From positions 1-53,447 of the forward strand of contig JAHDQI010000037.1 in the NCBI GenBank assembly GCA_018433925.1: a stretch of DNA of 53,447 nucleotides. The letters run 5' to 3'. The stretch is from Phycisphaerae bacterium (GTDB taxonomy: Bacteria > Planctomycetota > Phycisphaerae > Sedimentisphaerales > Anaerohalosphaeraceae). The translations under genes were made by a program, and so were the position numbers. Shown here piece by piece: positions 6,311 to 24,030 of the stretch. How positions within the stretch are numbered: position 1 is the first letter of the stretch; every line of letters begins with the position of its first letter. The notes beneath the pieces were generated by a model. That model saw only the letters and a program-made list of their open reading frames with translations. It did no database searches and had not been told where the DNA came from.

Positions 6311-7548
6311 ACAAAAAACTGTTAATAATAGGTCTTCTGATGGGAGGGGGCATGAATATGCTTTTTGCGGATTCTCCCGATGGCCCGAATAGGACAAAAG
6401 AGGTGTACGCACATTTTTTAACCTGGTTCAAGACACGTGAGTTTTCCGGCCGATGGGAAATGTGGAACTCGGATTACAAACAAAGTCCTCATAATCCGGA
6501 TGTTCTCTTATACAACGGCAGGCGGGATCTGGCGGTGACCAGCCATCCGCTTACAGGCCCTTATGATTCCTCCGATCCGGACATTCTGGAGTACCAATTT
6601 TTGTTGATGAAATTAAGCGGAATTGATGGGATCATTGTGGATTGGGACGGCCGACGGATCAATCCTTACCGACATGAGTGCCTGATGACCCTTCTGCCCT
6701 ATCTCGAACGATACAAAATCAAACTGATGCTGTGTTTTGAAGAATGGTGCGGCTATTGGCCAAAAGGTACTTTTCAGGAGCGCGCCCAGGAAGTCAAAGC
6801 GGCCCAGGATGAATTGCTCTGGATGATTCATACCTTCGTAGATCAGCCGTTTTATGGCACAGTGAACGGCAAAAAACCGATATTAGTCTTTCGTAAAATA
6901 CCCGATCAGTGGTTTACCCCGGCGGAGTGGGGGCAAATCGCCTCGATCCTGACAAAGGACAGTCTTACTCTGATTTTTGACCCCGGGGCCTACCAGGCCT
7001 TCGGAAAGATTGTGGGAGGCAAGTATTTTTGGGTTGGTGATTTTGATCCCCAAACCAATTCGGCCGATCTCGATTGGTGTAAACAAATGTATAGTAATTT
7101 TTTCCGGGTAAAAAATGAGCGGATAAAAAAGGAACTCGTCTTCGGGGGCGTCTCGCCCGGCTTTGATGATTCTCCGGTCTGGGGATGGGGTACCGGAGCC
7201 AGAAAAGCCCCTCGCTATAGGGGACAGCGTTTTGATTTGACCTGGACCCTCTCGGTAGAAAACAAAGCGGATGTAATTCAGGTCATAACCTGGAACGACT
7301 GGAACGAAGGCACACAAATTGAACCCTGTGACGCGTTCGGCTATCAATACCTTGAAATGAATAAAAAATATGCTGCCAAATACAAAGGGGAAACAGACAC
7401 CGTACCGAATGAAGCCCTGAGAATTCCATTTAAAATCTATACTGCCCGAAAGGCGGACTTTTCGGATGGGGATTTGCTGAATACAATCAGTCGATGTCTG
7501 CTGGAGGGAAAGTATTCAAAGGCGATCCAATTATCGGAGCCATTATAA
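6307..7548 (+). CDS. Secreted GH99-like (GH99/GH71-clan TIM barrel) glycosidase
   Basis: ATG 6307 overlaps the GH130 stop (ATGA at 6307-6310). Signal peptide MNKKLLIIGLLMGGGMNMLFA. HPLTGPYDSSDPDILEYQFLLMKLSGIDGIIVDW and VITWNDWNEGTQIEP resemble GH99 motifs (YP.LG.YSS.DP; FNEWHEGTQIE). Confidence 0.65.
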   Translation: MNKKLLIIGLLMGGGMNMLFADSPDGPNRTKEVYAHFLTWFKTREFSGRWEMWNSDYKQSPHNPDVLLYNGRRDLAVTSHPLTGPYDSSDPDILEYQFLLMKLSGIDGIIVDWDGRRINPYRHECLMTLLPYLERYKIKLMLCFEEWCGYWPKGTFQERAQEVKAAQDELLWMIHTFVDQPFYGTVNGKKPILVFRKIPDQWFTPAEWGQIASILTKDSLTLIFDPGAYQAFGKIVGGKYFWVGDFDPQTNSADLDWCKQMYSNFFRVKNERIKKELVFGGVSPGFDDSPVWGWGTGARKAPRYRGQRFDLTWTLSVENKADVIQVITWNDWNEGTQIEPCDAFGYQYLEMNKKYAAKYKGETDTVPNEALRIPFKIYTARKADFSDGDLLNTISRCLLEGKYSKAIQLSEPL

Positions 7549-7552
7549 TCTC

Positions 7553-9799
7553 ATGAAACCGATTTGTGCCATCCTGCTTTGTGTTGTTCTCGTATTTGAC
7601 AGGGCTGTTTGCCTTGGAGAAATTACCGATCCGCTGGACAATACAGGATATCTGACAGCGGCGCTGAACAGCGAGGTATCCGCGGACGGGACAGCTTATA
7701 TGACCATTACAGACCCGGGCGATTCTGTTGTCAACTGGCGCCAATCCCATTATGTGAGACTGCGTAATTACAATGACCGCGTCGAAATTGATCCTGTGGC
7801 CCCCATCGGAAACGGGCAGTATTCCCTGTATGTTTTATTATTTAACAGTTCCAAACAGTGTCTTGCGGAAATCCAGTGGACGGAGGCCGGCGATATTTGT
7901 ACGACTCGGATCCTCAGTAGCGTAAGTCGCCTGGCTGCGGATAATCAGGTGCAGAATGTAGAGTATTACTGGATTCGTTTCCGCCTGCACGGCGACATCG
8001 GGGAGGGCTTTGAATTTGATGAGATTCGTGTTTGTAACGGGCCGGGTTTATGGCCGACCACCCCCTTAATCCAGTCGGCGCCCAGGGCGGTTCTGGGCCA
8101 TGTCATGACCGGATTTCGGACTCCGCCGATCAGCGGCACCTGGTCCGGCTGGAATTATTCGAACGCCTATGTCAGTCATAATCCTTATGTGCTGGACACC
8201 GAGGGAAGACCTGATATCGCATCCGTCTATTATCCCTCCGTCGGGTATTACGACATGAAGGATCCTAAGCTGATTGAATATCACTGCCAGTGTCTCAAAA
8301 TGGCTTGTATGGACGGAATGATCTTCGATCTGGGCTTCTATGACATGGATCCGGATACGGTTGCGATGATGAATGCCTATTTGGGAATGTTGTCTGAATA
8401 CGGCCTCAAGGCCGCCATCTGTTACGAAGACAAGGCGCACTGGATCTGGGACAGCGGAGCAGCAACACGGGCCATGGCCCTGCAGCGGGCCTATGAAGAC
8501 ATGAATAACTGGCTGGCCCTGTTTCTGGCCAGCGGAGCCCAATATGATGTGTCGGATCAAAGACCTCTGTTTCTGCTGTTCAGCTATGAGGATACCCATC
8601 CCCAGAAAGGGATTACTTGTCTTTTGCCGGATGAGATCGAAGACTGGCTGGACACCTTTGCCCCATCACAAAAGCCGGTTCTCATGCGGCAGTGGTTTAA
8701 GGATCCGGACCATGTCGGGATCTTAAACGGACCCTACGGCTGGCCGATTCTGCACCCGGCCCCTCCCGAAATGGCTCCTTATGTCGGGTATTGCTCGCTG
8801 GAGCAGAATCGTGAACAATTGGATTTCATTCGGGAGTTCGGGCAGTATTTGTTCTCAAGCAATCTGGCGAATTTTCACATGCCCGGAGTCTGGCCCGGGT
8901 TCGACGATCTTGCGATTTGGGGGTGGGGCGGCGGACCGCGACAGATGCCCCGATACGACGGCCAATTGTATGAGGAAACCTGGCAGTGGGCAATTGAGGA
9001 TATGTTGCCGGTGGTCCAGGTGGCTACATGGAACGATTGGTTTGAGGGGACGATTATAGAACCCTCCGTAGAGTTCGGAGGGGCCTATCTGGAAATCACC
9101 TCGCAGAAGGCCGCAGCATTTAAAGAAATCAACGATTGGACTGTTCCGGATGTCAATGTGCCGGTTTGGATTTATCGGATCCGGGATATCACGGCAGACC
9201 CCTGCGTGCTGGAGGAGTTGGAGACCGCGTCTGAATATATTAAGACCGGTCAGTTTGCCCAGGCCCGGACAATCGTCTCCTCTTGGGCGGACTATTTTCA
9301 GGTAGATTCTGTACTCTATTGGACCGGCCCGGGTTCTATTCAAACAGCACCTCAAATAGAGACACCTGTTTCCTGCAATTTCGGGATTGTGGAATATGGC
9401 AACTCGAGCACGGCCGTTGTGGAGATCAAAAATCAAGGTACGGCAGCGCTTCAATTTATCGGGATCAATCCGGCAGAGATCATAACCGGCCAGGATGATT
9501 TTTCCATTGATCCGGCCTTTCCAAGCGAAGATCTGTACGTCAACCAGCAGAGAGAGTTGTCAATTCTATTTTCTCCCCAAAGCACGGGATCCAAATCGGG
9601 AATCCTGAAAATCATATCGAATGACCCCGTTTCTCCGGCCGTATATGTTCAAATCGAAGGCCAGTGCGTTTTCAAACAAGGAGATTTCAATCAGGATGGA
9701 ACAGTAAACTTGGAAGATCTGGTTTGGCTGTCTCTTTGCTGGCTGGATACCTGCGGCCCGGATGAGTTGATTCTTACAGCAGAACACTGGCTCGATTAA
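7553..9799 (+). CDS. Secreted multidomain protein: N-terminal CBM-like domain, GH99-like catalytic domain, Ig-like (ASH/choice-of-anchor-D-like) domain and dockerin-like C-terminus
   Basis: Signal-like N-terminus MKPICAILLCVVLVF. YPSVGYYDMKDPKLIEYHCQCLKMACMDGMIFDL and VATWNDWFEGTIIEP are paralogous to 6307-7548. An Ig-like segment CNFGIVEYGNSSTAVVEIKNQGTAAL precedes ILKIISNDPVSPAVYVQIEG. C-terminal segment is GDFNQDGTVNLEDLVWLSLCWL. Confidence 0.7.
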   Translation: MKPICAILLCVVLVFDRAVCLGEITDPLDNTGYLTAALNSEVSADGTAYMTITDPGDSVVNWRQSHYVRLRNYNDRVEIDPVAPIGNGQYSLYVLLFNSSKQCLAEIQWTEAGDICTTRILSSVSRLAADNQVQNVEYYWIRFRLHGDIGEGFEFDEIRVCNGPGLWPTTPLIQSAPRAVLGHVMTGFRTPPISGTWSGWNYSNAYVSHNPYVLDTEGRPDIASVYYPSVGYYDMKDPKLIEYHCQCLKMACMDGMIFDLGFYDMDPDTVAMMNAYLGMLSEYGLKAAICYEDKAHWIWDSGAATRAMALQRAYEDMNNWLALFLASGAQYDVSDQRPLFLLFSYEDTHPQKGITCLLPDEIEDWLDTFAPSQKPVLMRQWFKDPDHVGILNGPYGWPILHPAPPEMAPYVGYCSLEQNREQLDFIREFGQYLFSSNLANFHMPGVWPGFDDLAIWGWGGGPRQMPRYDGQLYEETWQWAIEDMLPVVQVATWNDWFEGTIIEPSVEFGGAYLEITSQKAAAFKEINDWTVPDVNVPVWIYRIRDITADPCVLEELETASEYIKTGQFAQARTIVSSWADYFQVDSVLYWTGPGSIQTAPQIETPVSCNFGIVEYGNSSTAVVEIKNQGTAALQFIGINPAEIITGQDDFSIDPAFPSEDLYVNQQRELSILFSPQSTGSKSGILKIISNDPVSPAVYVQIEGQCVFKQGDFNQDGTVNLEDLVWLSLCWLDTCGPDELILTAEHWLD

Positions 9800-9857
9800 A
9801 TCAAGTTTTGACGTCTGGACCTTATCCGGACTCCCGTTATTACAGCACAAACATCAC

Positions 9858-9884
9858 CCGCCTGAACCATCAGGCGGTTTATTT
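9858..9884 (+). terminator. Rho-independent terminator of the plus-strand operon
   Basis: ccgcctga (9858-9865) and tcaggcgg (9870-9877) form an 8-bp stem with a 4-nt loop, followed by TTTATTT (9878-9884). It lies 59 nt after the stop at 9799. Confidence 0.65.
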
Positions 9885-9997
9885 GTAGAGGAACCCCGAA
9901 TTGTTAGAGGCCCCCTCAAATTAAAACAAGCCCGAAGTGTTAGCGGGAAGAGAGAAATCGGTTTTTTGACGGCCAAGTCTAATCGGCCTTAAAATGT

Positions 9998-10030
9998 GCT
10001 TCCGGGGCGGTTTTTAACCTCCCCGGAAGC
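9998..10030 (-). terminator. Stem-loop downstream of minus-strand CDS 10088-11848
   Basis: gcttccgggg (9998-10007) pairs with ccccggaagc (10021-10030), giving a 10-bp GC-rich stem with a 13-nt loop. On the minus strand it is followed by ACAUUUUAAG. Confidence 0.45.
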
Positions 10031-10087
10031 AATATATGAGTGTACTGACTTAGACGCCTCTTCAAGAACCGTTCATACCGCTTTTCC

Positions 10088-11848
10088 TTAGGGCAGCGGC
10101 TCCGTTAATGCCGTCGATTCCAGCCAATCGACAACGAGGATCGAAAGATCCGCAAGGTCAAAAGAACAGTCATCGTTAATGTCACCACTCAAAGGCGTAT
10201 ATCCCGGTACGCCCTTGGCGGCCTCACAAGGATCTGCATACACCTGAATCGTAACGGCATCGGAAGCTTCTAATTCTCCGTCATTGACAGTAAGCATCAG
10301 CGTATAGCTTCCGACTTGATCAATCGTCACGGTCGTGGCCTCTGCTGTCGGGCTGTTGATCACGACATTGGGATCCTCGGGTGCTTCTTCCCACAGGACC
10401 GTATAGGGACCAGGAACACCGTCATCGGTTATCGTCGGGGCCATCTGCACATCCACGGCACCCTCGGTCAGCCACGTGTAAACCGTATCCCCGGCATCTA
10501 CATCCGGCGGGAAATTGCTTAACTTCGTTTCAAACGACCAGACATACCCGGTAATTGTATTCGGATCATCTATGCCGGAAGGCACTCCGCCTCCTTTATC
10601 AAGGGCCTCATCGATACGCCAGAAGTACTTACCATCTTTGTTCAAGGACGCCGTTGCGGCCCCGGTATCTCCATTGGCAGGAATCTCTTCGCGATAATAA
10701 AGCGCAGGGTCACTCGACACATTCTGATCTTCACTCCTATAAACGTAATACTTCAGAACATTCGGATTGGGTATTGTACTATTGGGATCGCCTGGATCTA
10801 CTGTCAATCCTTTATCCCATCCCAGATTCACCGTAACAGTGTAGGTTCCGGTTGAAATCCCAACTTCAGTTGCGCTATCCTTAGGCATTGGATTCGAGGC
10901 ACTTCTACCCACATTGCACAGAAAATCAATCGGACTCAGGGCCGTATCCAAAATACGCACTTCATCGAGATATCCTTGATATCGGTTAAAATGTCCTTTA
11001 TTCACGAGTTCTCGGTAAAGCACCCAACCCCCGCCATGCCACGTGGAGTATATGTCATCATCAGCACCGAGGGCCGTATCCGGACTGCCTGATAAAGTCA
11101 TATCTACAGAGGCAATAACCTCGGTATCCCCACCATCCGTGATATTGGTTAGATACACCGTAAAGGTTGTTCCATCGCTTACCGCCGCGACATGATACCA
11201 CTTGCCCGCCTCAATAACATTGGCTGCTGATTGTACACTATGTTTAATGAGGGATACATCGACGAAAAAACTCTCAATCGACCATGCTGCCGTATCCGAA
11301 TCCGCATCGTGCACACGAAGTGCAAATGAAGAAGCTGACGGGTCTGCAGTACAATACTGATACGCATCACGACACACCAGAGTACCGACTTTACCAGCAT
11401 TCGACGGATCTTGTGAGCTGTCCGGATTAAACAACGCTTCCACTGTGAATTGAGCCGGTTCAATAAGCTCCGCATCAATGCCAGTTGGGTTGCTTCCGTA
11501 TACTGAATAAGCGTCAGCGGTTGACTGGGTATTTATACCTGGTTTTGTTCCGTAATTTTTAATACTCAGTTTATTCATCTGGCTCGTTTGGGGTACCATA
11601 GAAAAGGGGATATTGCCGCGATGCCAAAACGAACTATTGTTCGGAGTATCCGACCAGGCCTGTAAATGATTTCCATTTCCCGAAACGTCGTCAATGTCCT
11701 GAGAATAGCGGTAATCATCATATTCCGTGTAAATCAGCGTATCTGCAGTTCCCTCATCGGCTTTCCAATAAGCCACGGTAGCTGCATATACCGGAAAGCT
11801 CGAAACCAACACCAGGAACACCATTGATTTCCATACAAAAAGTCTCAT
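10088..11848 (-). CDS. Exported LamG-domain protein, 'head A + short tail' (LamG + FN3-like + PKD-like + dockerin-like)
   Basis: Start reassigned to ATG 11848, with GGAGG 7 nt upstream. It gives MRLFVWKSMVFLVLVSSFPVYA|ATVAYW, parallel to the start of 28964-33397. LamG motifs are DVSGNGNHLQAWSD and LDEVRILDTALSPIDF. PKD-like region runs from PPDVDAGDTVYTW through TITDDGVPGPYTVLW. C-terminal segment is GDINDDCSFDLADLSILVVDWL. Confidence 0.85.
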   Translation of the reverse strand: MRLFVWKSMVFLVLVSSFPVYAATVAYWKADEGTADTLIYTEYDDYRYSQDIDDVSGNGNHLQAWSDTPNNSSFWHRGNIPFSMVPQTSQMNKLSIKNYGTKPGINTQSTADAYSVYGSNPTGIDAELIEPAQFTVEALFNPDSSQDPSNAGKVGTLVCRDAYQYCTADPSASSFALRVHDADSDTAAWSIESFFVDVSLIKHSVQSAANVIEAGKWYHVAAVSDGTTFTVYLTNITDGGDTEVIASVDMTLSGSPDTALGADDDIYSTWHGGGWVLYRELVNKGHFNRYQGYLDEVRILDTALSPIDFLCNVGRSASNPMPKDSATEVGISTGTYTVTVNLGWDKGLTVDPGDPNSTIPNPNVLKYYVYRSEDQNVSSDPALYYREEIPANGDTGAATASLNKDGKYFWRIDEALDKGGGVPSGIDDPNTITGYVWSFETKLSNFPPDVDAGDTVYTWLTEGAVDVQMAPTITDDGVPGPYTVLWEEAPEDPNVVINSPTAEATTVTIDQVGSYTLMLTVNDGELEASDAVTIQVYADPCEAAKGVPGYTPLSGDINDDCSFDLADLSILVVDWLESTALTEPLP

Positions 11849-12052
11849 TTTTCTACCTCCGCATTTCATTTTATTTAACTTCGCATGATAACCTGTTCAC
11901 CGTATCCGTAAAGGGCACACCTCACACACAAACGATTTAAAATAGAATTCTCTACACGATCCGCTTATTTGTCAGGAAGGGAGTTTTTCTTCGAATAGTC
12001 ATCCCAATCGCATTATTTCGTTTGGAGTTCATAAATATCTCATTCTCTTACA

Positions 12053-13303
12053 TCAACTCTTATTATAGTAATTAGGAACTGCAGAAAAACACCCTTTTGC
12101 GTCTAATTTCAACCAAAATGCGACATCGTTCTCTGCCTCTTTCCCCGGATTTATACCGGTCGCCTTATTCACAAGCACTCGCAACCGGGCCTGGTCTGAA
12201 ACACACTGACCCTGAATCACATCGTCTTCCGTAAACGTGGTCATCAGAATCTCCTTATCGGTATGGCGGTTGTAATCATAAACAATATAAATCGTCCCGT
12301 CCGGGGCCTGAATCCCATCCGGATAGGAGACACCGAGCCGCTCATCCAGCATAAGCCCTCTCGACCAGGTTTTCCCCTCATCCTCAGATATATAAGCCAT
12401 CAAATGGGAACGCCTTGTGCGCTCATGAATTGCGCCATGCTTGACCAGCAACAGCTTTCCTGATTTTAGTGACATTAGAAACAATCGTGCCGTGGCATGT
12501 TGGATACGGCTGGGTCTGACGGTTGTCCAGGTTTTGCCTTTGTCCATTGAATAACTCTCCCCGATTCCATACTTCGTTCGAGTCAATAGCCAAAGTCGAC
12601 CATCCCGATGCTCCACGACATTGTATTCATCAAATTCCCGGTCATCGGCAGGGATACCCACGGCACCGCCAAGTGTAAATGTTTTCCCTTCATCCCCGGA
12701 AAGTAAAGGCCTGGAGGGAGCATCCTTATTCCATGAGCCGCTCGGCCACAGCCAGGTTCCATCGGATAAAACCGTTGGTTTATTAAAACAATTGATGTTC
12801 GGATAGGCAATCAATCGAGGGGCAGACCATGTGGGATTTTCCTCTCCTGGATTGCTGGTAAAAATGGCCCACAGCGAACTGTCCGGCCCTGTGAGTTTTT
12901 TGGGGTACTGATTCCAGATTAGCCAGAGCCGGTTATTGGGATCCAGCCATACCGCCGGCTCAGAAGCACGAAGCAAACCATCATGGTCAGGATCGATGAC
13001 CAATTTCAGATCCGACCATGTCCGGCCGTCGTCTTCGCTGGTCACTAACATAACATAATTGTCATCCCCTTCGCCTATTCCTCCGCCATACCAGGTTCCC
13101 CAAAGACGGCCGTTGGCGGCTCGGGCAATGCTGGGAATCCCCTGGAACATACGAACGCTGTCCGCATATTCCCCCCCCGGATTCCAGTTCAGCTTTGGTA
13201 CCCTCGATTTGCCCTGAACCACAAAGTCGAGAGCTGAACCTGCCGAAACACAGATATTCAGACAAATCACTGGAATCATTATAATACACAGATTACATTT
13301 CAT
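12053..13303 (-). CDS. Secreted BNR/Asp-box six-bladed-propeller protein (sialidase-superfamily, non-canonical)
   Basis: Start reassigned to ATG 13303 (MKCNLCIIMIPVICLNICVSAGSA), 10 nt after the upstream stop at 13314. Asp-boxes are SEDDGRTWS, SGDEGKTFT, SMDKGKTWT and SEDEGKTWS. FQGIPSIA stands where sialidases carry R-[IV]-P. Confidence 0.8.
   Translation of the reverse strand: MKCNLCIIMIPVICLNICVSAGSALDFVVQGKSRVPKLNWNPGGEYADSVRMFQGIPSIARAANGRLWGTWYGGGIGEGDDNYVMLVTSEDDGRTWSDLKLVIDPDHDGLLRASEPAVWLDPNNRLWLIWNQYPKKLTGPDSSLWAIFTSNPGEENPTWSAPRLIAYPNINCFNKPTVLSDGTWLWPSGSWNKDAPSRPLLSGDEGKTFTLGGAVGIPADDREFDEYNVVEHRDGRLWLLTRTKYGIGESYSMDKGKTWTTVRPSRIQHATARLFLMSLKSGKLLLVKHGAIHERTRRSHLMAYISEDEGKTWSRGLMLDERLGVSYPDGIQAPDGTIYIVYDYNRHTDKEILMTTFTEDDVIQGQCVSDQARLRVLVNKATGINPGKEAENDVAFWLKLDAKGCFSAVPNYYNKS
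12062..12128 (-). promoter_or_regulatory. Promoter/operator module copy 1: minus-strand TATAAT plus two 21-bp-spaced direct repeats, upstream of 10088-11848
   Basis: attata at 12062-12067 reads TATAAT on the minus strand. TGCG cores are at 12098 and 12119. aacacccttttgcgt and caaccaaaatgcgac match AACACC-N4-TGCGA. The internal spacings (36 and 21 nt) equal those at 19304 and 36795. Confidence 0.7.
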
Positions 13304-13313
13304 CCTCGGTCTC

Positions 13314-14432
13314 TCATTCTTTTCGATAGCTCCGAAATCGTTTACGCCAATCTTTCGGTGTTGCGCCAACTTGCGAACGCGCATCAAAATAAGCGTCCAG
13401 ATTTTCCATCGGAATACCATCGTGCAATCCTCCCGGCGAACTCATCACAAATCCTGTAAAATCGGCGCATTTTGCGGCTACATCAAAAACCATTTTCCGC
13501 ACTTCACCGGGAGTTCCGAAAGTCAATTTGGCGGTTTCGATACCGCCGATAAAAAGCCCGCCGCGGGATCCAAAATTTTCGAGAATCACCTCAAGCGGTG
13601 TGGCAGGATTTTCGTAGAGCATACCGTCAACACCAACGTCCCGAAGTTTGGGAATAAAGGACGTCATATTACCATCCGCAACAAAGATGATCTTTTTTCC
13701 GAGATCCTTGGCCTGGCCCCAAATCTCAGGATAATGGGGGAAAATAAACTCATCATACCAAGACGGCCTAAAAACCGGACCGGCATGATTGGCCAGATCA
13801 TCATGAACAAAAACAAAAGGGGAATCCGAAGCCCTCGCCATTTCATTGACAATCGCTTTCGACTTTTGAACACAAGGAAGCAGGAATTGGTCGTGAAACC
13901 GCTGGGGTTGGCTCATGGCCGAAAGCATAAAGATCTCCCAGCCCAATACTTCCACCGCCCACATAAAAAGGGTTGTGTAAAGCATCGGATAATACAGACC
14001 AATATCCCCCAGGGCGGCCTGCCGCAAACGAATGTCTTCTGCGTCGCAAGAGTGAGGCACGGGGACAATCAAATCTTCATATTTCAAGGAATCGACATCT
14101 AATTCCCAAACATCTTCGACGGTTTTACAAGCATAGGTATGCCGAAAAGCGGTGTCGTAAACCCCCAGAGCCGCAAAACTGTATGGCTTGCGGGGATGAC
14201 GCCTGCATCGTCCTGAAGGAGTTGGAAAAGAGGCATTTTCGTTCTTCAACGGAACCCGCAGGATCAAATCCAGGCCCAGCGCCTCATAGGCCCGAAGATA
14301 CGCTTGATGCGTATCCATAAAAACATCCGTCCCGCTTACCCATTCAATGAGTTGTCGATGATTCAGGGTTTCCTTAGAAGGAATTTTCTCGGTCCGGGCC
14401 CCTTTGGCTCTATATAAAACATCTTGTTTCAT
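13314..14432 (-). CDS. Uroporphyrinogen-decarboxylase (URO-D)-like TIM-barrel family protein, cytoplasmic
   Basis: 372 aa with no signal peptide. The C-terminal half (KKIIFVADGNMTSFIPKLRDVGVDGMLYENPATP, then LFIGGIETAKLTFGTPGEVRKMVFDV) resembles the URO-D/MtaA-like family layout. The assignment is from memory only. Confidence 0.5.
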   Translation of the reverse strand: MKQDVLYRAKGARTEKIPSKETLNHRQLIEWVSGTDVFMDTHQAYLRAYEALGLDLILRVPLKNENASFPTPSGRCRRHPRKPYSFAALGVYDTAFRHTYACKTVEDVWELDVDSLKYEDLIVPVPHSCDAEDIRLRQAALGDIGLYYPMLYTTLFMWAVEVLGWEIFMLSAMSQPQRFHDQFLLPCVQKSKAIVNEMARASDSPFVFVHDDLANHAGPVFRPSWYDEFIFPHYPEIWGQAKDLGKKIIFVADGNMTSFIPKLRDVGVDGMLYENPATPLEVILENFGSRGGLFIGGIETAKLTFGTPGEVRKMVFDVAAKCADFTGFVMSSPGGLHDGIPMENLDAYFDARSQVGATPKDWRKRFRSYRKE

Positions 14433-14498
14433 TCTTATACATAGCTATACGAAAAAATACTCATTGGAGAATTATTTAAATGATCTCATCGTTCTCCG

Positions 14499-15638
14499 TT
14501 ACTTATTTGAGTCTGGTTTTTTATTGACCAGAATCCCCAGTTTCCCTCTCTTCGAAACAAGAGTTCCTTCCAAGATATCCTGTTCTGTAAATCTGGCCAA
14601 AAGAATTTCTTTTTCCTTGGTACGCGAATAATCATAGGTAATATATATGGTCCCATCCGAATCCTGTTGTCCATCGGGATAAGAAACCCATTTTCTTTCA
14701 TCCAACAGCAATCCCCCCGTCCATGTTTGACCGTCATCTTTTGATAAAAAAGCCATCATGTGACTACGGCCGGTCCTTTCATACAAAGGGCCGTTTTTCA
14801 CAAGAAGAAGATTTCCCGAGTGAAGACGCCGAATAAAAAATCTTGAAGACGGGTGCTTAACTGGTGAAGGGCGAAGGTCGCTCCATGAACAACCTTTATC
14901 CGTTGAAAAACTCTCCCCGATACCATAATTGGTCCGTACCCACATCCAAAGGGAGCCATCCTTTCTTTCCACAATCATATGTTCGTCAAATTCACGCTCC
15001 TGCGGCGGAATGTTCACGGAACCGACAAAGGAAATGGTTTGTCCTTGATTCAGCAAGGCGAATATTTTTGCACTCTGATCGGTGGTTCGCCAAGTGGAAA
15101 CGGGCAACAGCCATCGGCCGTCTGAAAGTACCGTCGGCTTACACATCATGATCCCGTCGGTCAGTCTTCTGGGAGAAGTCCATCGGGGTTTGGACTCATC
15201 GGGATTTTCCGTTACCATTGCCCATACGCCAGAGACGGAACAAAAACGAGCCCGGTCATCCTGCTGCGCCCAGAACAGCCATAGGCGCTCATCGGGATCA
15301 ACCCAGAGTTCCGGATCAAACGTACGGACCGGACCTTCTCCATCCGGATCTACGACAAATAACTCCTTCCACGTTGCGCCATCGTCTTCACTGCCGGCCA
15401 CAACGACATAATTATTGGAGTCTTCAGCCGGCGTTTTCCCCGCATACCAGGTCACCCATAGCCGTCCAGGGGCCGTAACCGCCAGGCTTGGAATCCCCTC
15501 GAACTGCCGTGAATCAGGCGAGGGATAATGATCCTGCATCGATTGGATGATTGTGGGCGGACTCAGAAAGTCCCCATACCCTTGAGCCCCGACAAGCAAG
15601 CAGGCAAACAAGACGGAATATACTACAATCTTTTTCAT
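14499..15638 (-). CDS. Secreted BNR/Asp-box propeller protein, paralogue of 12053-13303
   Basis: Signal peptide MKKIVVYSVLFACLLVGAQG. FEGIPSLAVTAPGRLWVTWYAG parallels FQGIPSIARAANGRLWGTWYGG in the paralogue. Asp-boxes are SEDDGATWK, STDKGCSWS and SKDDGQTWT. Confidence 0.8.
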   Translation of the reverse strand: MKKIVVYSVLFACLLVGAQGYGDFLSPPTIIQSMQDHYPSPDSRQFEGIPSLAVTAPGRLWVTWYAGKTPAEDSNNYVVVAGSEDDGATWKELFVVDPDGEGPVRTFDPELWVDPDERLWLFWAQQDDRARFCSVSGVWAMVTENPDESKPRWTSPRRLTDGIMMCKPTVLSDGRWLLPVSTWRTTDQSAKIFALLNQGQTISFVGSVNIPPQEREFDEHMIVERKDGSLWMWVRTNYGIGESFSTDKGCSWSDLRPSPVKHPSSRFFIRRLHSGNLLLVKNGPLYERTGRSHMMAFLSKDDGQTWTGGLLLDERKWVSYPDGQQDSDGTIYITYDYSRTKEKEILLARFTEQDILEGTLVSKRGKLGILVNKKPDSNK

Positions 15639-15967
15639 TAAAATGTCTCCAAATGCATCGATTTTCTATCCGGAAGTAAATGGACCCTGATACCGAATAT
15701 CCATACGAATTTAGTAGGCAACTTGACCTCTTCAGAAAATACACACAGTCGCGATTATGACTGATTTTTCTGCCGATGTATTATTGATCTTTGAAAAAAT
15801 AGAATTCCTCGTTTTCTCGTCACCCCCGCGCGGGCGGAGCTCCGGATACGTCGTAACACCCGGAATCCCACCCTCGCGGAAATGACAAATTGCTTTGTTA
15901 TTTTTTCAATAATCGATAGATATTTCCGTTTCAGGAGATCGTCTGAATCTCAAAAATAAAAAACGAT

Positions 15968-16804
15968 TTACCACCAGAACCACATTCCTGCTCCGCTTGT
16001 GTAACAATGTTCCAAACTGTCAAAGTGTTTCCAGTTAACATGTCCGTCCGCGTACGCAGTATTCCCTCCGTCCGGTTTTATGCCTGAATTGGCCCCCTCC
16101 CGAATAATTTCACGGGATTTATGATTTGAATTGTCAGATAAAGTTCCTCCGCTGAGAGTCGTAATGCCGCCGGGGATATCAAAAAACTTCCATTTACTTG
16201 AACTAATATTTACATCCATAATCATGGAGGCCGAACTGGCGGAGGGAAGTTTTGACAGTTTGCTGATCCATTGGGCTTTTGCACCATTAGCCAGTCTGTC
16301 CGGGAGGACAGAATTTCCGGCCGCATCGTATTTATCGAATGTGTATATTTCCGGCAGGACTCGATGTAAGTTTTTTTGCTCGTCGGTTGTCAGTGATCCT
16401 TCATCGCGCAGGGGCACCGGATTCGTGTAGGGTCCTCCCGTCGATGCAAGCCAACCATACTGCCACCAGCGTGCATCATCTGCTTTTTTCATCTTATTGG
16501 CCGGGCAGAAAAATGTTTTATTGTCGTCAAAACCGGCATATTGACTCATCTGATTCGTACTCCAGAAAGTCACGGTCCAAAGATAAAACCCGGATCCGGA
16601 CTGGGATCGGGGCACCTCTGAATCATGGTCATTTGCATAGAGAAGGGTGCCCAGGGCCTGCTGGCGAAGATTATTGGCGCACATGACCCTGTGCGCATAC
16701 ATCTTGGCGCGGCTAAGAGACGGCATGATAATCGCCAGCAGCAATGCGATAATGGCAATGACCACCAATAATTCAATTAACGTAAATGCCTTTTTCGCCT
16801 TCAT
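15968..16804 (-). CDS. Prepilin-type N-terminal cleavage/methylation domain protein (DUF1559-like)
   Basis: [30 protein letters not shown] at the N-terminus; C-terminal AYADGHVNWKHF. Confidence 0.85.
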   Translation of the reverse strand: MKAKKAFTLIELLVVIAIIALLLAIIMPSLSRAKMYAHRVMCANNLRQQALGTLLYANDHDSEVPRSQSGSGFYLWTVTFWSTNQMSQYAGFDDNKTFFCPANKMKKADDARWWQYGWLASTGGPYTNPVPLRDEGSLTTDEQKNLHRVLPEIYTFDKYDAAGNSVLPDRLANGAKAQWISKLSKLPSASSASMIMDVNISSSKWKFFDIPGGITTLSGGTLSDNSNHKSREIIREGANSGIKPDGGNTAYADGHVNWKHFDSLEHCYTSGAGMWFWW

Positions 16805-16921
16805 TTTCTTTTTCCCTTATCCTTATTACTCAATTTGAATTCGATACTATCATTACTATCCCATCCCGCAAACGACGATTCGTCCCGTACACAACTCACC
16901 CTATTATTTATTCTGCTCCGT

Positions 16922-16970
16922 GTGCATCGTCGTGTCCCCGCAATTTGGTCCAGGGTCGACGACGATGCAC
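16922..16970 (-). terminator. 12-bp perfect inverted repeat between CDS 17017-19080 and CDS 15968-16804
   Basis: gtgcatcgtcgt (16922-16933) pairs with acgacgatgcac (16959-16970) around a 25-nt loop. There is no U-tract, so terminator function is uncertain. Confidence 0.35.
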
Positions 16971-17016
16971 CGAAGCATAATTAATTTATAAAACGCATTC
17001 AATTACTGTTCACTCT

Positions 17017-19080
17017 TTATTCTACCGCATAGTTGGTCATAAGCCACGTTCCAGTGAGTTCGGCCAAATCCTCCAAATCAACCTCACAATCCCTGTTTAT
17101 ATCTCCCGGCAACCATTCAAAACCCGGTTGTGCTGCCGCATAAGAACAAGAATCGGCAAAGACGGTTACCTGTACAGTATCGGTGACCGTATACTCGCCA
17201 TCGTACACCTCGAGCTGAAGCACATAAATCCCGGTTTCTTTCAGCTCAGCAACAGCATTCTTAACCGCCGGATTAATAAAGCCAGAGGGATTCGAGTCAT
17301 TTGCATCCGTAACAATCGTCCAATTATAGGTTAGCGGAGCCACCAATCCATCATCGGTTACTGTAGGACTCATTGTCACCTGACGCGGCGGATCAGTCCA
17401 CCAAGTCTGACTATCTTCACCTGCATCCACTTCCGGCGTGAGATTAAAGGTATTAAACGTAAAGAAGGGGCCCATTACATCCTCAAGCCCATTCTTGTAG
17501 GTAGTAATCTGCCAGTAATATTGCTCACTCACGTCGATATCGACCAACACTGACTCAACCGATTGATTGGCCACAATCTTAGACATGAGAAGCAGATTCG
17601 GCTCTGTTCCAAAATAAACATCGCATGTCACAATATCGCCGGGCACGTTCGGTTCCGGAAGCGTCCACTGGAGCAGATCCAGCGTTGCTGATACGGTGCT
17701 GCCGTCAGCCGGGATTGGATTAAATAGGTGATATCCCCTTACTTCTGTAATGTCTTGAACCGAATCGTACACCACATCAATCCATCCATCACCGCCATAC
17801 GCGATGATTTTGCCGGCGGCTTTCAGATCGTCTATCTGTGTACGAGCATCCCAGTGAAGAATCAGTTTGCCTGGTCCTGCAAGATCAATCACCCCGTGCC
17901 CGGAGCTGTAATCAAGAATCACAAGTCCTGCGGAAGAGGTATTAGTTATCTCAACCGTACCCCCCTTCAGTTCAAAATACGTGCCGGTTTGTAATTTGAA
18001 ATATGAACTGATATTAATCTTGCCGCCGCTGACGATCCAATGCGACGGAGCTTCCGTATATTCGCTAAGTCTGAGAGTATACGTGTTGATTTCTCCGCCG
18101 GTCATCACAACATTACTGCTGGCGGTTGCGTAACTTCGCGCATCCATAAAGTTCCCCGTTACATTAATCGTACCACCGGACATAATGATCTCTGATTTAG
18201 CCCCAGCTCCTGCAACTAAACCCGGGGTATTAAGCTCGCCACCTTCCATAATAAGAGTGCCATGGGCATTCGCCCCGCTTACTCCAATCATTGCATCTGT
18301 TGGAAAAGTAGCCGTACCGCCGGTAATGCATAGAACACCTTCACAGGCCCAAGCACCACTTGTTTGACCCAAACGAAGTCTTCTGACATTTAGTGTACCC
18401 CCGTTGAGTTCAAAATAACCCTTGTTCCTGCCGGGAGTCCCATAATTGGCACCCACTCTAAAATAGTCTGCAGAAGACGTGGGTATCAGAACACTGCCAT
18501 CATTCACGATCCATTCCATTGTGCCCATTCCACCCAGCTGGATGCCCTGACCCATATACACGGTCCCGCCATCCATAATGATTAATCCATTGGCATCCGT
18601 GTCCGAACCCCTGAAATACATACCGTTCAACGTACCACCGGTCATATAGAGATAAGCATCACCGTCCTGTGCAAAATCCAAAATGTTACCGACGGTTATG
18701 GTCCCGTCGCTGATTTCCACATGCCCAACAGCTACCTCCGGACTCGAACTACCAGGCAAGGTCCAATCGATATCTACACCCAAGGTGCCGCCGGAAATTT
18801 GCATGGCTTGTGTCCCTGCACCTGCACCCGGACCAAAGAGAGCATCACACACCGCAGTTACTGTTCCGTCAATCACGGGACCCTGGGAAACAGAGGCATC
18901 TAACCACACTTCATCGTCTGCCGTCGGGACCTGATCAGTTGACCAGTTCTCCTCTGTACTCCACAAATCGTCCACGCCGCCTCCGTCCCAGGTAATTTCG
19001 GCGGCGATGGATGGATTGGCCAACAGGCCTACTGCCATGACAATAATCCAAACTACCCATTGTTTAACATAATCATTCAT
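17017..19080 (-). CDS. Exported beta-helix-repeat protein, 'head B + short tail' (G-G-T repeats + FN3-like + PKD-like + dockerin-like)
   Basis: GGAGGA lies upstream of ATG 19080. N-terminal anchor/signal MNDYVKQWVVWIIVMAVGLLANPSIAA. Repeats include MTGGTLNG, MDGGTVYM, LNGGTLNV, ITGGTATF, MEGGELNT, MSGGTINV, MTGGEINT, VSGGKINI and LKGGTVEI. The tail starts at PEVDAGEDSQTWW, runs through TVTDDGLVAPLTYNW and ends in GDINRDCEVDLEDLAELTGTWL. Confidence 0.85.
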   Translation of the reverse strand: MNDYVKQWVVWIIVMAVGLLANPSIAAEITWDGGGVDDLWSTEENWSTDQVPTADDEVWLDASVSQGPVIDGTVTAVCDALFGPGAGAGTQAMQISGGTLGVDIDWTLPGSSSPEVAVGHVEISDGTITVGNILDFAQDGDAYLYMTGGTLNGMYFRGSDTDANGLIIMDGGTVYMGQGIQLGGMGTMEWIVNDGSVLIPTSSADYFRVGANYGTPGRNKGYFELNGGTLNVRRLRLGQTSGAWACEGVLCITGGTATFPTDAMIGVSGANAHGTLIMEGGELNTPGLVAGAGAKSEIIMSGGTINVTGNFMDARSYATASSNVVMTGGEINTYTLRLSEYTEAPSHWIVSGGKINISSYFKLQTGTYFELKGGTVEITNTSSAGLVILDYSSGHGVIDLAGPGKLILHWDARTQIDDLKAAGKIIAYGGDGWIDVVYDSVQDITEVRGYHLFNPIPADGSTVSATLDLLQWTLPEPNVPGDIVTCDVYFGTEPNLLLMSKIVANQSVESVLVDIDVSEQYYWQITTYKNGLEDVMGPFFTFNTFNLTPEVDAGEDSQTWWTDPPRQVTMSPTVTDDGLVAPLTYNWTIVTDANDSNPSGFINPAVKNAVAELKETGIYVLQLEVYDGEYTVTDTVQVTVFADSCSYAAAQPGFEWLPGDINRDCEVDLEDLAELTGTWLMTNYAVE

Positions 19081-19303
19081 TTTAAATCCTCCGAGTTCAT
19101 GTAAAATCGTAACTAATTAATGTTTTACGCAACCATCCATAGATCGTATTTTCTGAAAAACACACCTCACACACTGATTATCTGAAGAAAAGCCCCTCTC
19201 TTGTTCCGGTTGTTTATCGGAAATGGGATGTCTTTGTGAGCACTCATTTCCACCACATTTTCACGCCTGTAGTTCATATATTTTATCGCTTAAATCAACT
19301 TTC

Positions 19304-19370
19304 ATTATAGCAATAACGCATTTCAAAAAAACACCTTATTGCGTTTATTTACAACCATAATGCGACATCG
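19304..19370 (-). promoter_or_regulatory. Promoter/operator module copy 2, upstream of 17017-19080
   Basis: attata at 19304-19309 reads TATAAT on the minus strand. TGCG cores are at 19340 and 19361. The repeats are aacaccttattgcgt and acaaccataatgcgac. It ends in the same tgcgacatcg as copy 1. Confidence 0.7.
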
Positions 19371-19539
19371 CCACGTAGAACTGCTCCTCTTTAGAAGGGC
19401 TGTTTTATAGGTGATCGAAGGTTTATTTTTATCATGCAATTAGGAAACTGAATCTTTGAGTACTCTTTCATCTCAAATCTCTACTATTTAACGATATCAA
19501 GCCATGCTTATGATATATCCGGCCGGAAAAGCTTGCTCA

Positions 19540-21495
19540 TTATCGAACAGGAATCTTATAAAGTGTTATGCTAACTGGTTTTATTGTGATCTGCCCAATC
19601 CTATCCGTCGGCTGAAGTCGCTGAATCTCAATAGCCGGAGGCAATTCAGGATCGTTGTAGGCCTTGGGATTTTCATGGGTGATAAGCCAGCCCTCCGCTT
19701 TTCCGCTTGGAGAGACTGATTTCAGGTCCAGATTGACTTGATAGATATCATGGGTCGCATTTACAAAACCAACCGTCAGGAATTTCCGGTCTTCAGTCAG
19801 AGCGGCCGAAACATCCAGTTTTTCACTCCAGCCGCTTACCTGCACAGGGATCGTGCCGAACTCTTTACGATAGAGCATCAGCGGATAACCGGTGGCGTCA
19901 AATGCGGCGGCGGTTTTCGTCGTCTTGATGCAGCCGATGACATTGACTGTCTGGGCGTAGTTCGCCATATAGCAGATATCTGTATTGCGGAAGTATTCGT
20001 GCAGGCCCGCTGCGATGCCGAGGGCATCTTTCATGAAAAAACGTGTTCCTATCTCTCCAAAAACATCCGGGCCATACCAGTAATTCCATTCATCCATGAC
20101 AATGCGGATATCTCTGCCTTTCAGCGAATCGATTGTCTGGCGATAATTCCGATGGGCCCGGCATTTTTCTTTGATTCGTTCGGGGATCTGACGGACATGG
20201 TCTGTAAGATCAGGCAGATCCTTCCGACAATAGAAATGTTCACTGATCAAATCCATATGGCCAGCGCAATGGCGAAGCATTTGTTCAGACCAGTTTTTAG
20301 TAATTTCTCCGACAGCAATGGTTTGGATCGATGGATCCACTTTTCGCATCATGCTATCCACCCAGTTATGCTTGAGAACATAATGGCTGATGTCCATATA
20401 CCCTAATTGCCACCGCCCGAACATCTCGTTTCCTACGCACCACCATTTGACCCCAAACGGCTCCGGGTGTCCGTTTTGGGCACGCCACTTCCCGTTTGCT
20501 GTCTTCGCTGTTCCATTGCAGTATTCCACTTCAGCCGCAGCAGAATAGGCATCGCCAAAACCGGTGTTCACTGTAATCATGGGTTCTGTGTCGAGAAGTC
20601 GGCAGAATTCGATAAATTCGTGAAGTCCCATGTCATTCGTTTCAATGCCTGTCCAGGCAGGATTGGTCCGGGTCGGCCGTTTATCTTGATCCCCGAGCCC
20701 GTCCCGCCAGTCATACCCGCTTACAAAATTGCCCCCCGGCCATCGGTACACGGGGCTATCCAGTTGCCTGAGAAGTTCCAGCGTATCTTTACGAAATCCT
20801 TTTACATGGTCTGCTGGCATCAGCGAAACAGCACCGACAGTAAAGGATCCTTGGCCGCTGCCGGATATTTCCAGACGGGCATTGTCTGCATTGTCTTCGG
20901 CCGTAAATTTCAGCGGATACGTTTTGAATGCCCCAGAGAGCTTTTTAATCGTTATACTCTGCCGCCCCTGCTGATCGTCAGACCAAACCAGAGAAATCTG
21001 TATCGGTCCGGACTTGCTGCCTCGAAGAACAATGCGGCCGGTGTATTCTTTGCCTTTGAGCAGCGCCAATTCCTCTTGATAAATACCGGTTTTTTCGCCC
21101 CTTGGCGTAATCAAGGGACAATGTTCACCGGAAAGCGGATGGTCTGTTGTCATAGTAACCGAATCTTTGGGACCGATGACTTTCCACGGTGAGTCAGTCA
21201 AAACTATTGCCTGGTTCTTGGTTGTTTTCCAGATATCCCCTTTAGCAGGTACAGCATAATAAAATTTGCGGTCATCGAGCATTTCGGCCCAGATACCTCC
21301 GTAAATACACTGTCCAAGATGCTCAATGAACTGTCCGTAAATGTACTTGGAGATGGGCTCCATGGTTTGGCCCGGATCAATTTGTACCTCTGCTGAAACG
21401 GTTTTAGCCTCGGGCTGTTCCGCTTTTAGAGGAATTGAAAAAGACGAAAAAAAACTCATGATTAAGACGGACACGAAAAGTTGATTTGTATTCAT
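19540..21495 (-). CDS. GH51 alpha-L-arabinofuranosidase, secreted
   Basis: Signal peptide MNTNQLFVSVLIMSFFSSFSIPLKA. YRWPGGNFVSGYDWRDGLG and WCVGNEMFG (acid/base Glu context) are hallmark GH51 motifs. Size is 651 aa. Confidence 0.85.
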   Translation of the reverse strand: MNTNQLFVSVLIMSFFSSFSIPLKAEQPEAKTVSAEVQIDPGQTMEPISKYIYGQFIEHLGQCIYGGIWAEMLDDRKFYYAVPAKGDIWKTTKNQAIVLTDSPWKVIGPKDSVTMTTDHPLSGEHCPLITPRGEKTGIYQEELALLKGKEYTGRIVLRGSKSGPIQISLVWSDDQQGRQSITIKKLSGAFKTYPLKFTAEDNADNARLEISGSGQGSFTVGAVSLMPADHVKGFRKDTLELLRQLDSPVYRWPGGNFVSGYDWRDGLGDQDKRPTRTNPAWTGIETNDMGLHEFIEFCRLLDTEPMITVNTGFGDAYSAAAEVEYCNGTAKTANGKWRAQNGHPEPFGVKWWCVGNEMFGRWQLGYMDISHYVLKHNWVDSMMRKVDPSIQTIAVGEITKNWSEQMLRHCAGHMDLISEHFYCRKDLPDLTDHVRQIPERIKEKCRAHRNYRQTIDSLKGRDIRIVMDEWNYWYGPDVFGEIGTRFFMKDALGIAAGLHEYFRNTDICYMANYAQTVNVIGCIKTTKTAAAFDATGYPLMLYRKEFGTIPVQVSGWSEKLDVSAALTEDRKFLTVGFVNATHDIYQVNLDLKSVSPSGKAEGWLITHENPKAYNDPELPPAIEIQRLQPTDRIGQITIKPVSITLYKIPVR

Positions 21496-21558
21496 CAGGC
21501 AGCCTTTCTATTTCCCAAAATGACAATTCGAACGTTTTCCTGCTTAGAATTCGTTTTG

Positions 21559-22845: not shown

Positions 22846-22887
22846 CCTTCAGAAAAGAGTTGTCATTGAGCCTGTAAAGGAGCATTT

Positions 22888-23979: not shown

Positions 23980-24030
23980 GACATCCTTTCTGCTTCTTTG
24001 TATTGATTCAGTATAGCAAAAGTATAGGTT

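Follow-up and report, generated by a model that had tools for sequence, protein, structure and literature searches.

The exo-alpha-sialidases of glycoside hydrolase family 33 (GH33), represented by the enzymes of Micromonospora viridifaciens (1EUS/1W8O) and Clostridium perfringens (NanI, 2BF6), are six-bladed beta-propellers with Asp-boxes whose active site comprises an arginine triad, an acid/base Asp or Glu, a Glu and a Tyr nucleophile. The first arginine of the triad stands in an R-I/V-P (RIP) motif. The (beta/alpha)8 barrel of the URO-D fold is found in uroporphyrinogen decarboxylase (HemE; human UROD, 1URO/1R3Y) and in the MtaA/CmuA methylcobamide:coenzyme M methyltransferases (4AY7). Here we examine a locus in which the two folds meet. 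In a 53,447-nucleotide stretch of DNA from a Phycisphaerae bacterium (contig JAHDQI010000037.1; the whole stretch is called the window hereafter), two genes for sialidase-like propellers, BNR1 and BNR2, flank a gene for a URO-D-like protein that we call UROD-A (Table 1).

One sialidase-related enzyme that acts on something other than sialic acid is the GH143 DHA-hydrolase BT1020 of Bacteroides thetaiotaomicron, which attacks chain D of rhamnogalacturonan-II. The sugar that it releases is a 2-keto-3-deoxy acid distinct from sialic acid, and it works beside beta-L-arabinofuranosidases. GH143 is described as a sialidase-related five-fold propeller whose substrate is an analogue of sialic acid with seven carbons (PMC6811678). 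According to a 2026 preprint, B. thetaiotaomicron also secretes 3-deoxy-D-manno-octulosonic acid (D-Kdo), and D-Kdo pathways in other gut microbes are unconfirmed (10.64898/2026.03.13.711244). Scaly prasinophytes, whose scales are rich in Kdo, have expanded GH33 and GT29 families (PMC13213038). These papers establish that sialidase-like enzymes do act on non-sialic ulosonic acids, the catabolism of which is poorly known; none of them identifies the family found in the window. The literature searched yielded no paper that connects proteins of the URO-D family to sulfatases, to sialidase-like propellers or to the use of polysaccharides, in keeping with the remark in an original prediction, made from the sequence of this locus, that no described pathway pairs the two families.

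We find that the pairing of a URO-D-fold protein with an arginine-less sialidase-fold propeller is recurrent and crosses phyla, that it occurs amid acid-sugar catabolic genes, and that it points to an undescribed sugar-degrading route. The exact triad in the window is itself a one-off local arrangement. Our preferred interpretation, to which we assign a probability of roughly 0.45, is that BNR1 and BNR2 are glycosidases acting on an acidic sugar other than sialic acid and that UROD-A is a cytoplasmic converter of the resulting acid sugar.

The list of open reading frames bears out the predicted coordinates of the triad. The three genes lie on one strand with intergenic gaps of 66 nt (BNR2/UROD-A) and 10 nt (UROD-A/BNR1), and only 'gagaccgagg' separates the TGA of UROD-A from the BNR1 start codon. 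The open frame of BNR1 spans 12053-13420 (455 amino acids) and overlaps the end of UROD-A, and an internal ATG yields the shorter product given in Table 1, which has a hydrophobic, signal-peptide-like N-terminus. Both propellers begin with a short charged and then hydrophobic stretch (MKKIVVYSVLFACLLVGAQG and MKCNLCIIMIPVICLNICVSAG) that we read by eye as a putative signal peptide, whereas UROD-A carries no such stretch. The two propellers are 49% identical across 338 residues and match the Pfam family BNR_2 at 9.1e-29 (BNR2) and 4e-30 (BNR1). These findings agree with the earlier description of two secreted paralogues around a signal-less gene.

The AlphaFold model of BNR2 (predicted local distance difference test score, pLDDT, 92.4) is a six-bladed beta-propeller of the GH33 type. 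It superposes on the M. viridifaciens sialidase with a Z score of 32.8 and a root mean square deviation (rmsd) of 2.5 Å over 302 residues at 22-23% identity, and on GH33 sialidase structures with an rmsd of 2.5-2.6 Å over 302-306 residues at 14-23% identity. GH33 entries stand at the top of the Foldseek list (template modelling scores 0.61-0.69), and the six-bladed alignment covers residues 39-357, that is, the whole length of the propeller, in which BNR2 appears to differ from the GH143 propeller, described as five-fold. No GH143 or GH93 entry appears among the structural matches listed for the BNR2 model, and no direct comparison with either family was made.

Catalytic residues were mapped by aligning a profile of 50 family members with the RIP-type sialidase encoded at 44223-45395 of the window (probability 97.8%). 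The RIP arginine falls on Gly48 of BNR2, which is nearly invariant in the 50 sequences. The acid/base Asp falls on Asp73, likewise nearly invariant (Glu72 takes its place in a MAFFT alignment), whereas the GH33 Glu (Glu219), the second and third Arg (Arg235 and Arg291) and the Tyr nucleophile (Tyr320) all fall on residues that are invariant in the family. On alignment, then, the window propellers share with GH33 the Asp-boxes and each of these catalytic residues but have Gly for the first Arg, and the Gly-Ile-Pro strand is preceded by a five-residue insertion. The motifs FEGIPSLA and FQGIPSIA in the propellers, compared with LRVPSIL and YRIPAVV in the two sialidases of the window's nan cluster, are as first noted. 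Because the profile alignment places Gly48 on the RIP site, the earlier claim that these propellers lack the RIP arginine is correct, and the superposition on GH33 that had been proposed as a check upholds the fold, with the remaining catalytic residues kept by alignment and the first arginine lost. Relatives of the propellers number 4779 at E <= 0.001, and genome annotation has thousands of them under the names 'exo-alpha-sialidase' or 'sialidase family protein'. The source genome alone has 11 BNR_2 matches in 3.76 Mb, among which are four RIP-type sialidases (two of them in the nan cluster of the window) and three propellers of the Gly type.

The evidence for a recurrent pairing comes from 31 UROD-A loci in species genomes, in which open reading frames were called, clustered and scanned with Pfam. 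Eleven of them (L002, L003, L005, L006, L007, L009, L011, L012, L013, L017 and L023) encode a BNR_2 propeller no more than 6 kb from the UROD-A orthologue, and the names of these records place them in Planctomycetota, Verrucomicrobiota, Lentisphaerota, Chloroflexota, Spirochaetota, Bacillota and KSB1. None of the 11 propellers has an Arg at the RIP position; five have Asp there and the rest have other residues or gaps. Of the 11, 9-10 retain the counterparts of Arg235, Arg291 and Tyr320, and eight retain that of Glu219, with an Asp in one more. Ten of these propellers belong to a subfamily other than that of the window, in which a LamG domain is frequent and one member (L007) is fused to a sulfatase, and a tblastn search at E <= 1e-10 detected a window-type BNR in just one of the 31 loci (L002). 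As an estimate of chance, the density of BNR_2 genes in the source genome gives a probability of about 4% for one within a 13-kb span. A metagenome locus, L185, adds a row comprising UROD-A, a DQP-type BNR, a signal-less Gly-type (GIP) BNR and a KDPG (2-keto-3-deoxy-6-phosphogluconate) aldolase, such that in both L185 and L002 UROD-A is accompanied by a propeller of the clade found in the window. The propeller at L011:7134-8954 is another of the DQP type. In L185, which derives from a fermentation metagenome, UROD-A (5813-6921) is split over two frames of 113 and 247 amino acids, and a frameshift or assembly error is possible.

An alternative reading of the propellers is that they are ordinary exo-sialidases or KDNases in which a displaced arginine completes the triad. 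Arg44, invariant in all 50 family members, lies four residues before Gly48 within the five-residue insertion, and an Arg at this -4 position is kept in all three members of the clade in the source genome (BNR1, BNR2 and one encoded on contig C305) as well as in the L185 member. This residue may restore the full arginine triad, every other GH33 catalytic residue is in place, and NanA-like lyases, SSF transporters and GFO/IDH/MocA oxidoreductases occur in some loci of the family. Nevertheless, we judge this explanation improbable. The genome already possesses four RIP-type sialidases, and the window holds a complete nan cluster; the commonest metabolic neighbours of the family are 2-keto-3-deoxygluconate (KDG) or 2-keto-3-deoxygalactonate (KDGal) kinases and KDPG aldolases, not NanA, NanK and NanE; and the second propeller subfamily, found beside UROD-A, lacks the RIP arginine and, in 10 of the 11 linked propellers, any Arg upstream of that site.

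The model of UROD-A (pLDDT 94.5) is a (beta/alpha)8 barrel of the URO-D fold, which sustains the original assignment of the middle gene. It matches human UROD with a Z score of 23.2-23.5 and an rmsd of 3.6-3.9 Å over about 308 residues at 13-15% identity; the match with Z 23.5 has an rmsd of 3.8 Å over 308 residues. The Z score of 22.6 against MtaA of Methanosarcina mazei amounts to a tie, and MtaA is the best Foldseek match (E 3.5e-11). The Pfam URO-D match (1.2e-10, 41.4 bits against a cut-off of 23.9) is confined to residues 174-353, in the C-terminal half of the protein, and no solved HemE aligns by sequence with the N-terminal half. The catalytic residues of HemE include Asp86, Arg37 and Arg41. 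A phmmer search of solved structures with UROD-A returned nothing at E <= 1, and a search with the family profile gave matches only at E >= 0.13. Under curated cut-offs UROD-A belongs to neither HemE nor MtaA, since it has no match to the hemE equivalog TIGR01464 at E <= 0.01 and scores 15.5 bits against a cut-off of 235.4 with the MtaA/CmuA model TIGR01463. Thus, on the question of whether the gene should be placed with HemE or with MtaA, the shared fold holds and membership of either family does not. UROD-A also differs from HemE in its setting, which is that of glycan and acid-sugar loci rather than haem loci.

Relatives of UROD-A number 417 at E <= 0.001 in 90% clusters; among 50% representatives there are 100 at E <= 1e-30 and 1400 at E <= 1e-10. 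One of the 417 shares 85% identity with UROD-A and is encoded on a contig of 129,555 bp; a relative of the window-type propeller (60% identical) is recorded on a contig of equal length, perhaps the same one. Their source names are either 'uroporphyrinogen decarboxylase family protein' or 'hypothetical', and the ESM Atlas returned only clusters named 'URO-D domain-containing protein'. In a quick tree, rather than a careful tree search, the orthologous UROD-A clade (26 rows, support 99) stands apart from two paralogous clades, UROD-B and U2. Residues invariant in the UROD-A family include Lys20, Glu21, Asn24, His25, His127, Tyr148, Tyr152, Glu161, His210, Asp211, Asp212, Asp253, Asn344 and Tyr348. 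In the model, His210-Asp211-Asp212 and Asp253 are located at the C-terminal ends of barrel strands, where this His/Asp cluster would form a candidate metal or acid-base site.

The structural likeness to MtaA raises the possibility that UROD-A is a substrate:corrinoid methyltransferase, namely the methyltransferase I component of an anaerobic O-demethylase, which would demethylate a methylated sugar released by the propellers with the help of corrinoid proteins and an activator encoded elsewhere in the genome. The zinc ligands of MtaA are a His-x-Cys motif and a downstream Cys. In a weak profile alignment with 4AY7 (E 0.28), 'hicG' falls on 'vadG' of UROD-A, which contains Asp253, and the second Cys falls on Gly334, so that the ligand sites are occupied by Val/Ala, Asp253 and Gly334. 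The profile search also lists CdmB, from a chloromethane corrinoid methyltransferase system, at only E 0.31. Two MtaC-like corrinoid proteins that stand alone and an intact RACE activator are encoded in the source genome (Table 1) and keep a corrinoid-dependent demethylase alive as an explanation. The genome also has five URO-D-fold paralogues, none of which reaches the HemE or MtaA cut-off. Three of the paralogues adjoin sugar transporters: an SSF gene on contig C385, a GH3 - DUF2264 - URO-D - SSF row on C267, and RhaT with an FGGY kinase on C240. However, neither corrinoid protein nor RACE adjoins an obvious methyltransferase. No B12-binding family was found by Pfam among 147 neighbouring proteins from 29 of the UROD-A genome loci, and BLAST with the two corrinoid proteins of the genome found no corrinoid protein in 42 further UROD-A loci from metagenomes, most of which are short and a few of which duplicate genome loci. 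Among 41 genomes of the order, 39 encode RACE (as does 1 of 14 control genomes) and only 3 encode UROD-A, so RACE does not track UROD-A. The sole strong Pterin_bind protein of the genome, of 284 amino acids, lies beside a PdxB-like gene and is possibly an enzyme of folate biosynthesis. We therefore regard this demethylase function as doubtful, and the original suggestion that UROD-A may decarboxylate or demethylate its substrate gains no support from the ligand sites, as weakly aligned, or from the partners in the scanned loci.

The other genes around UROD-A are consistent with the handling of acidic sugars. Among the 31 genome loci, sulfatases occur in at least 14, an HpcH/HpaI aldolase occurs in 12, and about 17 contain one or two additional URO-D paralogues; D-2-hydroxyacid dehydrogenases (2HADH), GntR/FCD regulators, ABC, TRAP and SSF transporters and GH29 are also recurrent. 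The metagenome loci display again the pattern of HpcH, UROD-A, U2, 2HADH and GntR. In a relative from the same order, G031, these genes form a compact operon, with GntR followed by 2HADH - UROD-A - HpcH - a 365-amino-acid protein without a Pfam match - a URO-D paralogue, and with a divergent SSF gene.

Many of the sulfatases linked to UROD-A (L001, L006, L017, L019, L020, L023, L025 and L028) begin at residue 2-10 of the Pfam domain, which leaves no space for a signal peptide, and an ABC-transporter gene shares the locus with them in L001, L019, L020 and L025. The combination of signal-less sulfatases with ABC transporters suggests that imported sugars are desulfated in the cytoplasm. A Victivallales metagenome-assembled genome encodes the fusion noted above (L007:2287-4890), in which an S1-type sulfatase and an arginine-less BNR_2 propeller form one protein of 867 amino acids between two URO-D paralogues.

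For the propeller family of the window itself, 80 loci were examined. These contain kinases (PfkB in 7 and 2-keto-3-deoxy-galactonokinase, DGOK, in 2), lyases (KDPG aldolase in 5 and NanA-like DHDPS in 6), transporters (Nramp in 4, TctA in 9, TctBC in 4 and SSF in 7), GFO/IDH/MocA oxidoreductases (9) and sulfatases (12). The usual partners of the clade thereby differ from those of GH33 sialidases, with Nramp and Tct transporters accompanying the kinases and aldolases. In G031 the propeller belongs to a compact unit in which an AraC-type regulator stands beside Eda - PfkB - Nramp - BNR. All five proteins of this unit are 56-70% identical to a regulator, Eda, PfkB, Nramp and BNR2 of the window, and the BNR is orthologous to BNR2 (57% identity). 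These matches make the window look like a stretched version of the Eda-PfkB-Nramp-BNR unit, and the apparent insertions comprise a GH127 gene, two very large proteins, GH51, a pilin-like gene, the duplicated propeller and UROD-A. The GH127 gene recalls the beta-L-arabinofuranosidase partners of GH143.

Table 1. Coordinates of the triad, of related genes in the window, and of URO-D, corrinoid and activator genes on other contigs of the same genome.
Feature	Position	Strand	Description and evidence
BNR2	14499-15638	minus	Predicted secreted six-bladed GH33-fold propeller of the 'GIP' clade; 379 aa; Pfam, model, alignment
UROD-A	13314-14432	minus	Predicted cytoplasmic URO-D-fold protein of an uncharacterised clade; 372 aa; Pfam, model
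BNR1	12053-13303	minus	Paralogue of BNR2, same 'GIP' clade; 416 aa from ATG at 13303
Nramp-family transporter	21559-22845	minus	Orthologue (70% identity) of Nramp in the G031 Eda-PfkB-Nramp-BNR operon; NCBIfam Nramp_1 83.8 against cut-off 50
PfkB kinase, KDG/KDGal-kinase type	22888-23979	minus	59% identity to G031 operon kinase; NF041633 kinase part 428.6 bits and NF041332 182.6 bits, both under their own cut-offs
KDPG/KHG aldolase (Eda)	35925-36686	minus	TIGR01182 222 bits against cut-off 156; 56% identity to G031 aldolase
Divergent regulator	36888-38048	plus	Peripla_BP_3 + AraC-type helix-turn-helix; orthologue (58% identity) of the regulator beside the G031 operon
URO-D paralogue	C385:1991-3262		
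URO-D paralogue	C267:24126-25265		
URO-D paralogue	C240:15072-16277		
URO-D paralogue	C282:2789-3820		
MtaC-like corrinoid protein	C297:12413-13039		B12-binding_2 + B12-binding
MtaC-like corrinoid protein	C208:9952-10785		B12-binding_2 + B12-binding
RACE activator	C410:3552-5516		654 aa; 2Fe-2S + Raco_middle + RACo_C_ter

We propose that BNR1 and BNR2 would be exported retaining glycosidases of the GH33 fold, members of a large clade with Gly in place of the first triad arginine, and that they most likely free an acidic sugar other than sialic acid, for example a 2-keto-3-deoxy (ulosonic) acid. The organism would import the freed sugar and pass it to the KDG/KDGal-type kinase and the KDPG aldolase, both of which are probably parts of one ancestral AraC-regulated Eda-KdgK-Nramp-BNR unit, stretched here by insertions. 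UROD-A would most likely turn the imported acid sugar into a substrate for an aldolase by isomerisation, dehydration or decarboxylation, possibly with a metal held by the invariant His210-Asp211-Asp212 / Asp253 cluster. Elsewhere, its setting is operons of GntR, 2-hydroxyacid dehydrogenase, UROD-A, HpcH and a second URO-D paralogue, with carboxylate-type or sugar transporters, and often with sulfatases and other arginine-less propellers nearby. The analysis shows the folds, the aligned residues and the gene neighbourhoods; from these we infer the substrate and the chemistry, and from the layout of the genes the co-transcription of BNR2, UROD-A and BNR1.

Several observations weigh against this interpretation, in addition to the possible role of Arg44. 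UROD-A is present in none of the 80 window-type propeller loci. In G031, the propeller unit and the UROD-A operon are about 400 kb apart. A scan of 11700-16100 for promoters and terminators found 6 and 5 sites, respectively, compared with 6.2 and 4.9 in shuffled sequence, so the proposed co-transcription draws only on the shared strand and the gap lengths. The residue assignments of UROD-A, as read from the MtaA alignment, are weak. KduI, UxaC and UxuA are encoded in the source genome, so the kinase and aldolase also have ordinary sources of KDG and may simply serve ordinary uronate catabolism. Finally, none of six congeners has either UROD-A or the Gly-type propeller, and the absence of both genes from all six indicates that the triad is recent, local and accessory.

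These data also bear on whether the adjacency arose by chance, with the propellers derived from an Eda-KdgK-Nramp-BNR unit and UROD-A from a separate acid-sugar pathway, having landed between duplicated propellers. The separation of the two modules in G031 and the absence of UROD-A from the propeller-family loci are what such an origin would produce. The usual partners of UROD-A, the 2HADH and HpcH operon and a second URO-D paralogue, do not adjoin it in the window. The 17-kb stretch at 7000-24000 has no nucleotide match in the six congeners except GH51 (68-72% identity) and a repeated pilin N-terminal motif, and the congener genomes, at 2.8-3.1 Mb, are 0.7-0.9 Mb smaller than that of the source organism. 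Across the order, UROD-A occurs in the source genome (G000) and in just two of 40 relatives, and the Gly-type propeller is distributed likewise (G000 and 2 of 40). Nevertheless, chance adjacency seems unlikely to us given that UROD-A and a sialidase-fold propeller lie within 6 kb of each other in loci from seven phyla, that the RIP arginine is missing from every paired propeller, that two loci join UROD-A with the propeller clade of the window, and that the window genes share one strand with short gaps. A conserved BNR-UROD-A-BNR triad as such was considered and rejected on the counts for the two sets of loci (0/80 and 1/31). The neighbourhood conservation that the original prediction anticipated thus fails for the exact triad, both in the propeller loci and in the congeners (0/6), and holds for the broader URO-D/BNR_2 pairing (11/31, and L185). 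Overall, the observation behind that prediction is confirmed and its interpretation is partly supported.

The ordinary uronate genes bear on a further candidate argument. A genome devoid of known KDG routes would have implicated UROD-A; this was rejected, as those routes are present. For the enolase superfamily, only a sub-threshold match was found.

Beyond our preferred interpretation of the window, a broader and more tentative proposal is that UROD-A and its tandem paralogues UROD-B and U2 form a new, sugar-acting branch of the URO-D fold which, together with arginine-less GH33-fold glycosidases, cytoplasmic sulfatases, HpcH and 2HADH, might constitute an undescribed pathway for sulfated or acidic sugars in at least seven phyla. 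In a bolder form, this would be the missing anaerobic, corrinoid-dependent removal of methyl ethers from algal or plant sugars. Should the substrate of the propeller clade be some other acid sugar, then surveys of marine and sediment metagenomes overcount sialidases and leave a real glycan-degrading activity without a name. The clade of URO-D-fold proteins, for its part, is labelled as uroporphyrinogen decarboxylase family yet resides in sugar-acid operons of at least seven phyla. A sugar-directed function, if true, would be new chemistry for the URO-D fold and would supply a step by which sulfated or acidic glycans of algae and plants are degraded anaerobically. The compact UROD-A operon of G031 offers a tractable system for study.

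Two further observations concern neighbouring genes. Nramp is located inside rows of Eda, KDG(al) kinase and BNR in the window and in L140 (8269-9513), L105, L106, L110 and L111, and the rows that bear it occur in Planctomycetota, Kiritimatiellales and Bacteroidota. Its presence in a sugar-acid operon may reflect either metal supply or a different substrate. Separately, an HpcH and 2HADH pair on contig C261 was considered as the lost operon of UROD-A and rejected, because it sits in a polysaccharide-biosynthesis cluster. At C261:11089-13607 (L142:7089-9607), an HpcH aldolase, a D-2-hydroxyacid dehydrogenase and a cytidylyltransferase are encoded together, and the cluster also contains glycosyltransferases, a sulfotransferase, Wzy and genes for synthesis of 3'-phosphoadenosine 5'-phosphosulfate (PAPS). 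This cluster may represent a route to an activated acidic sugar.

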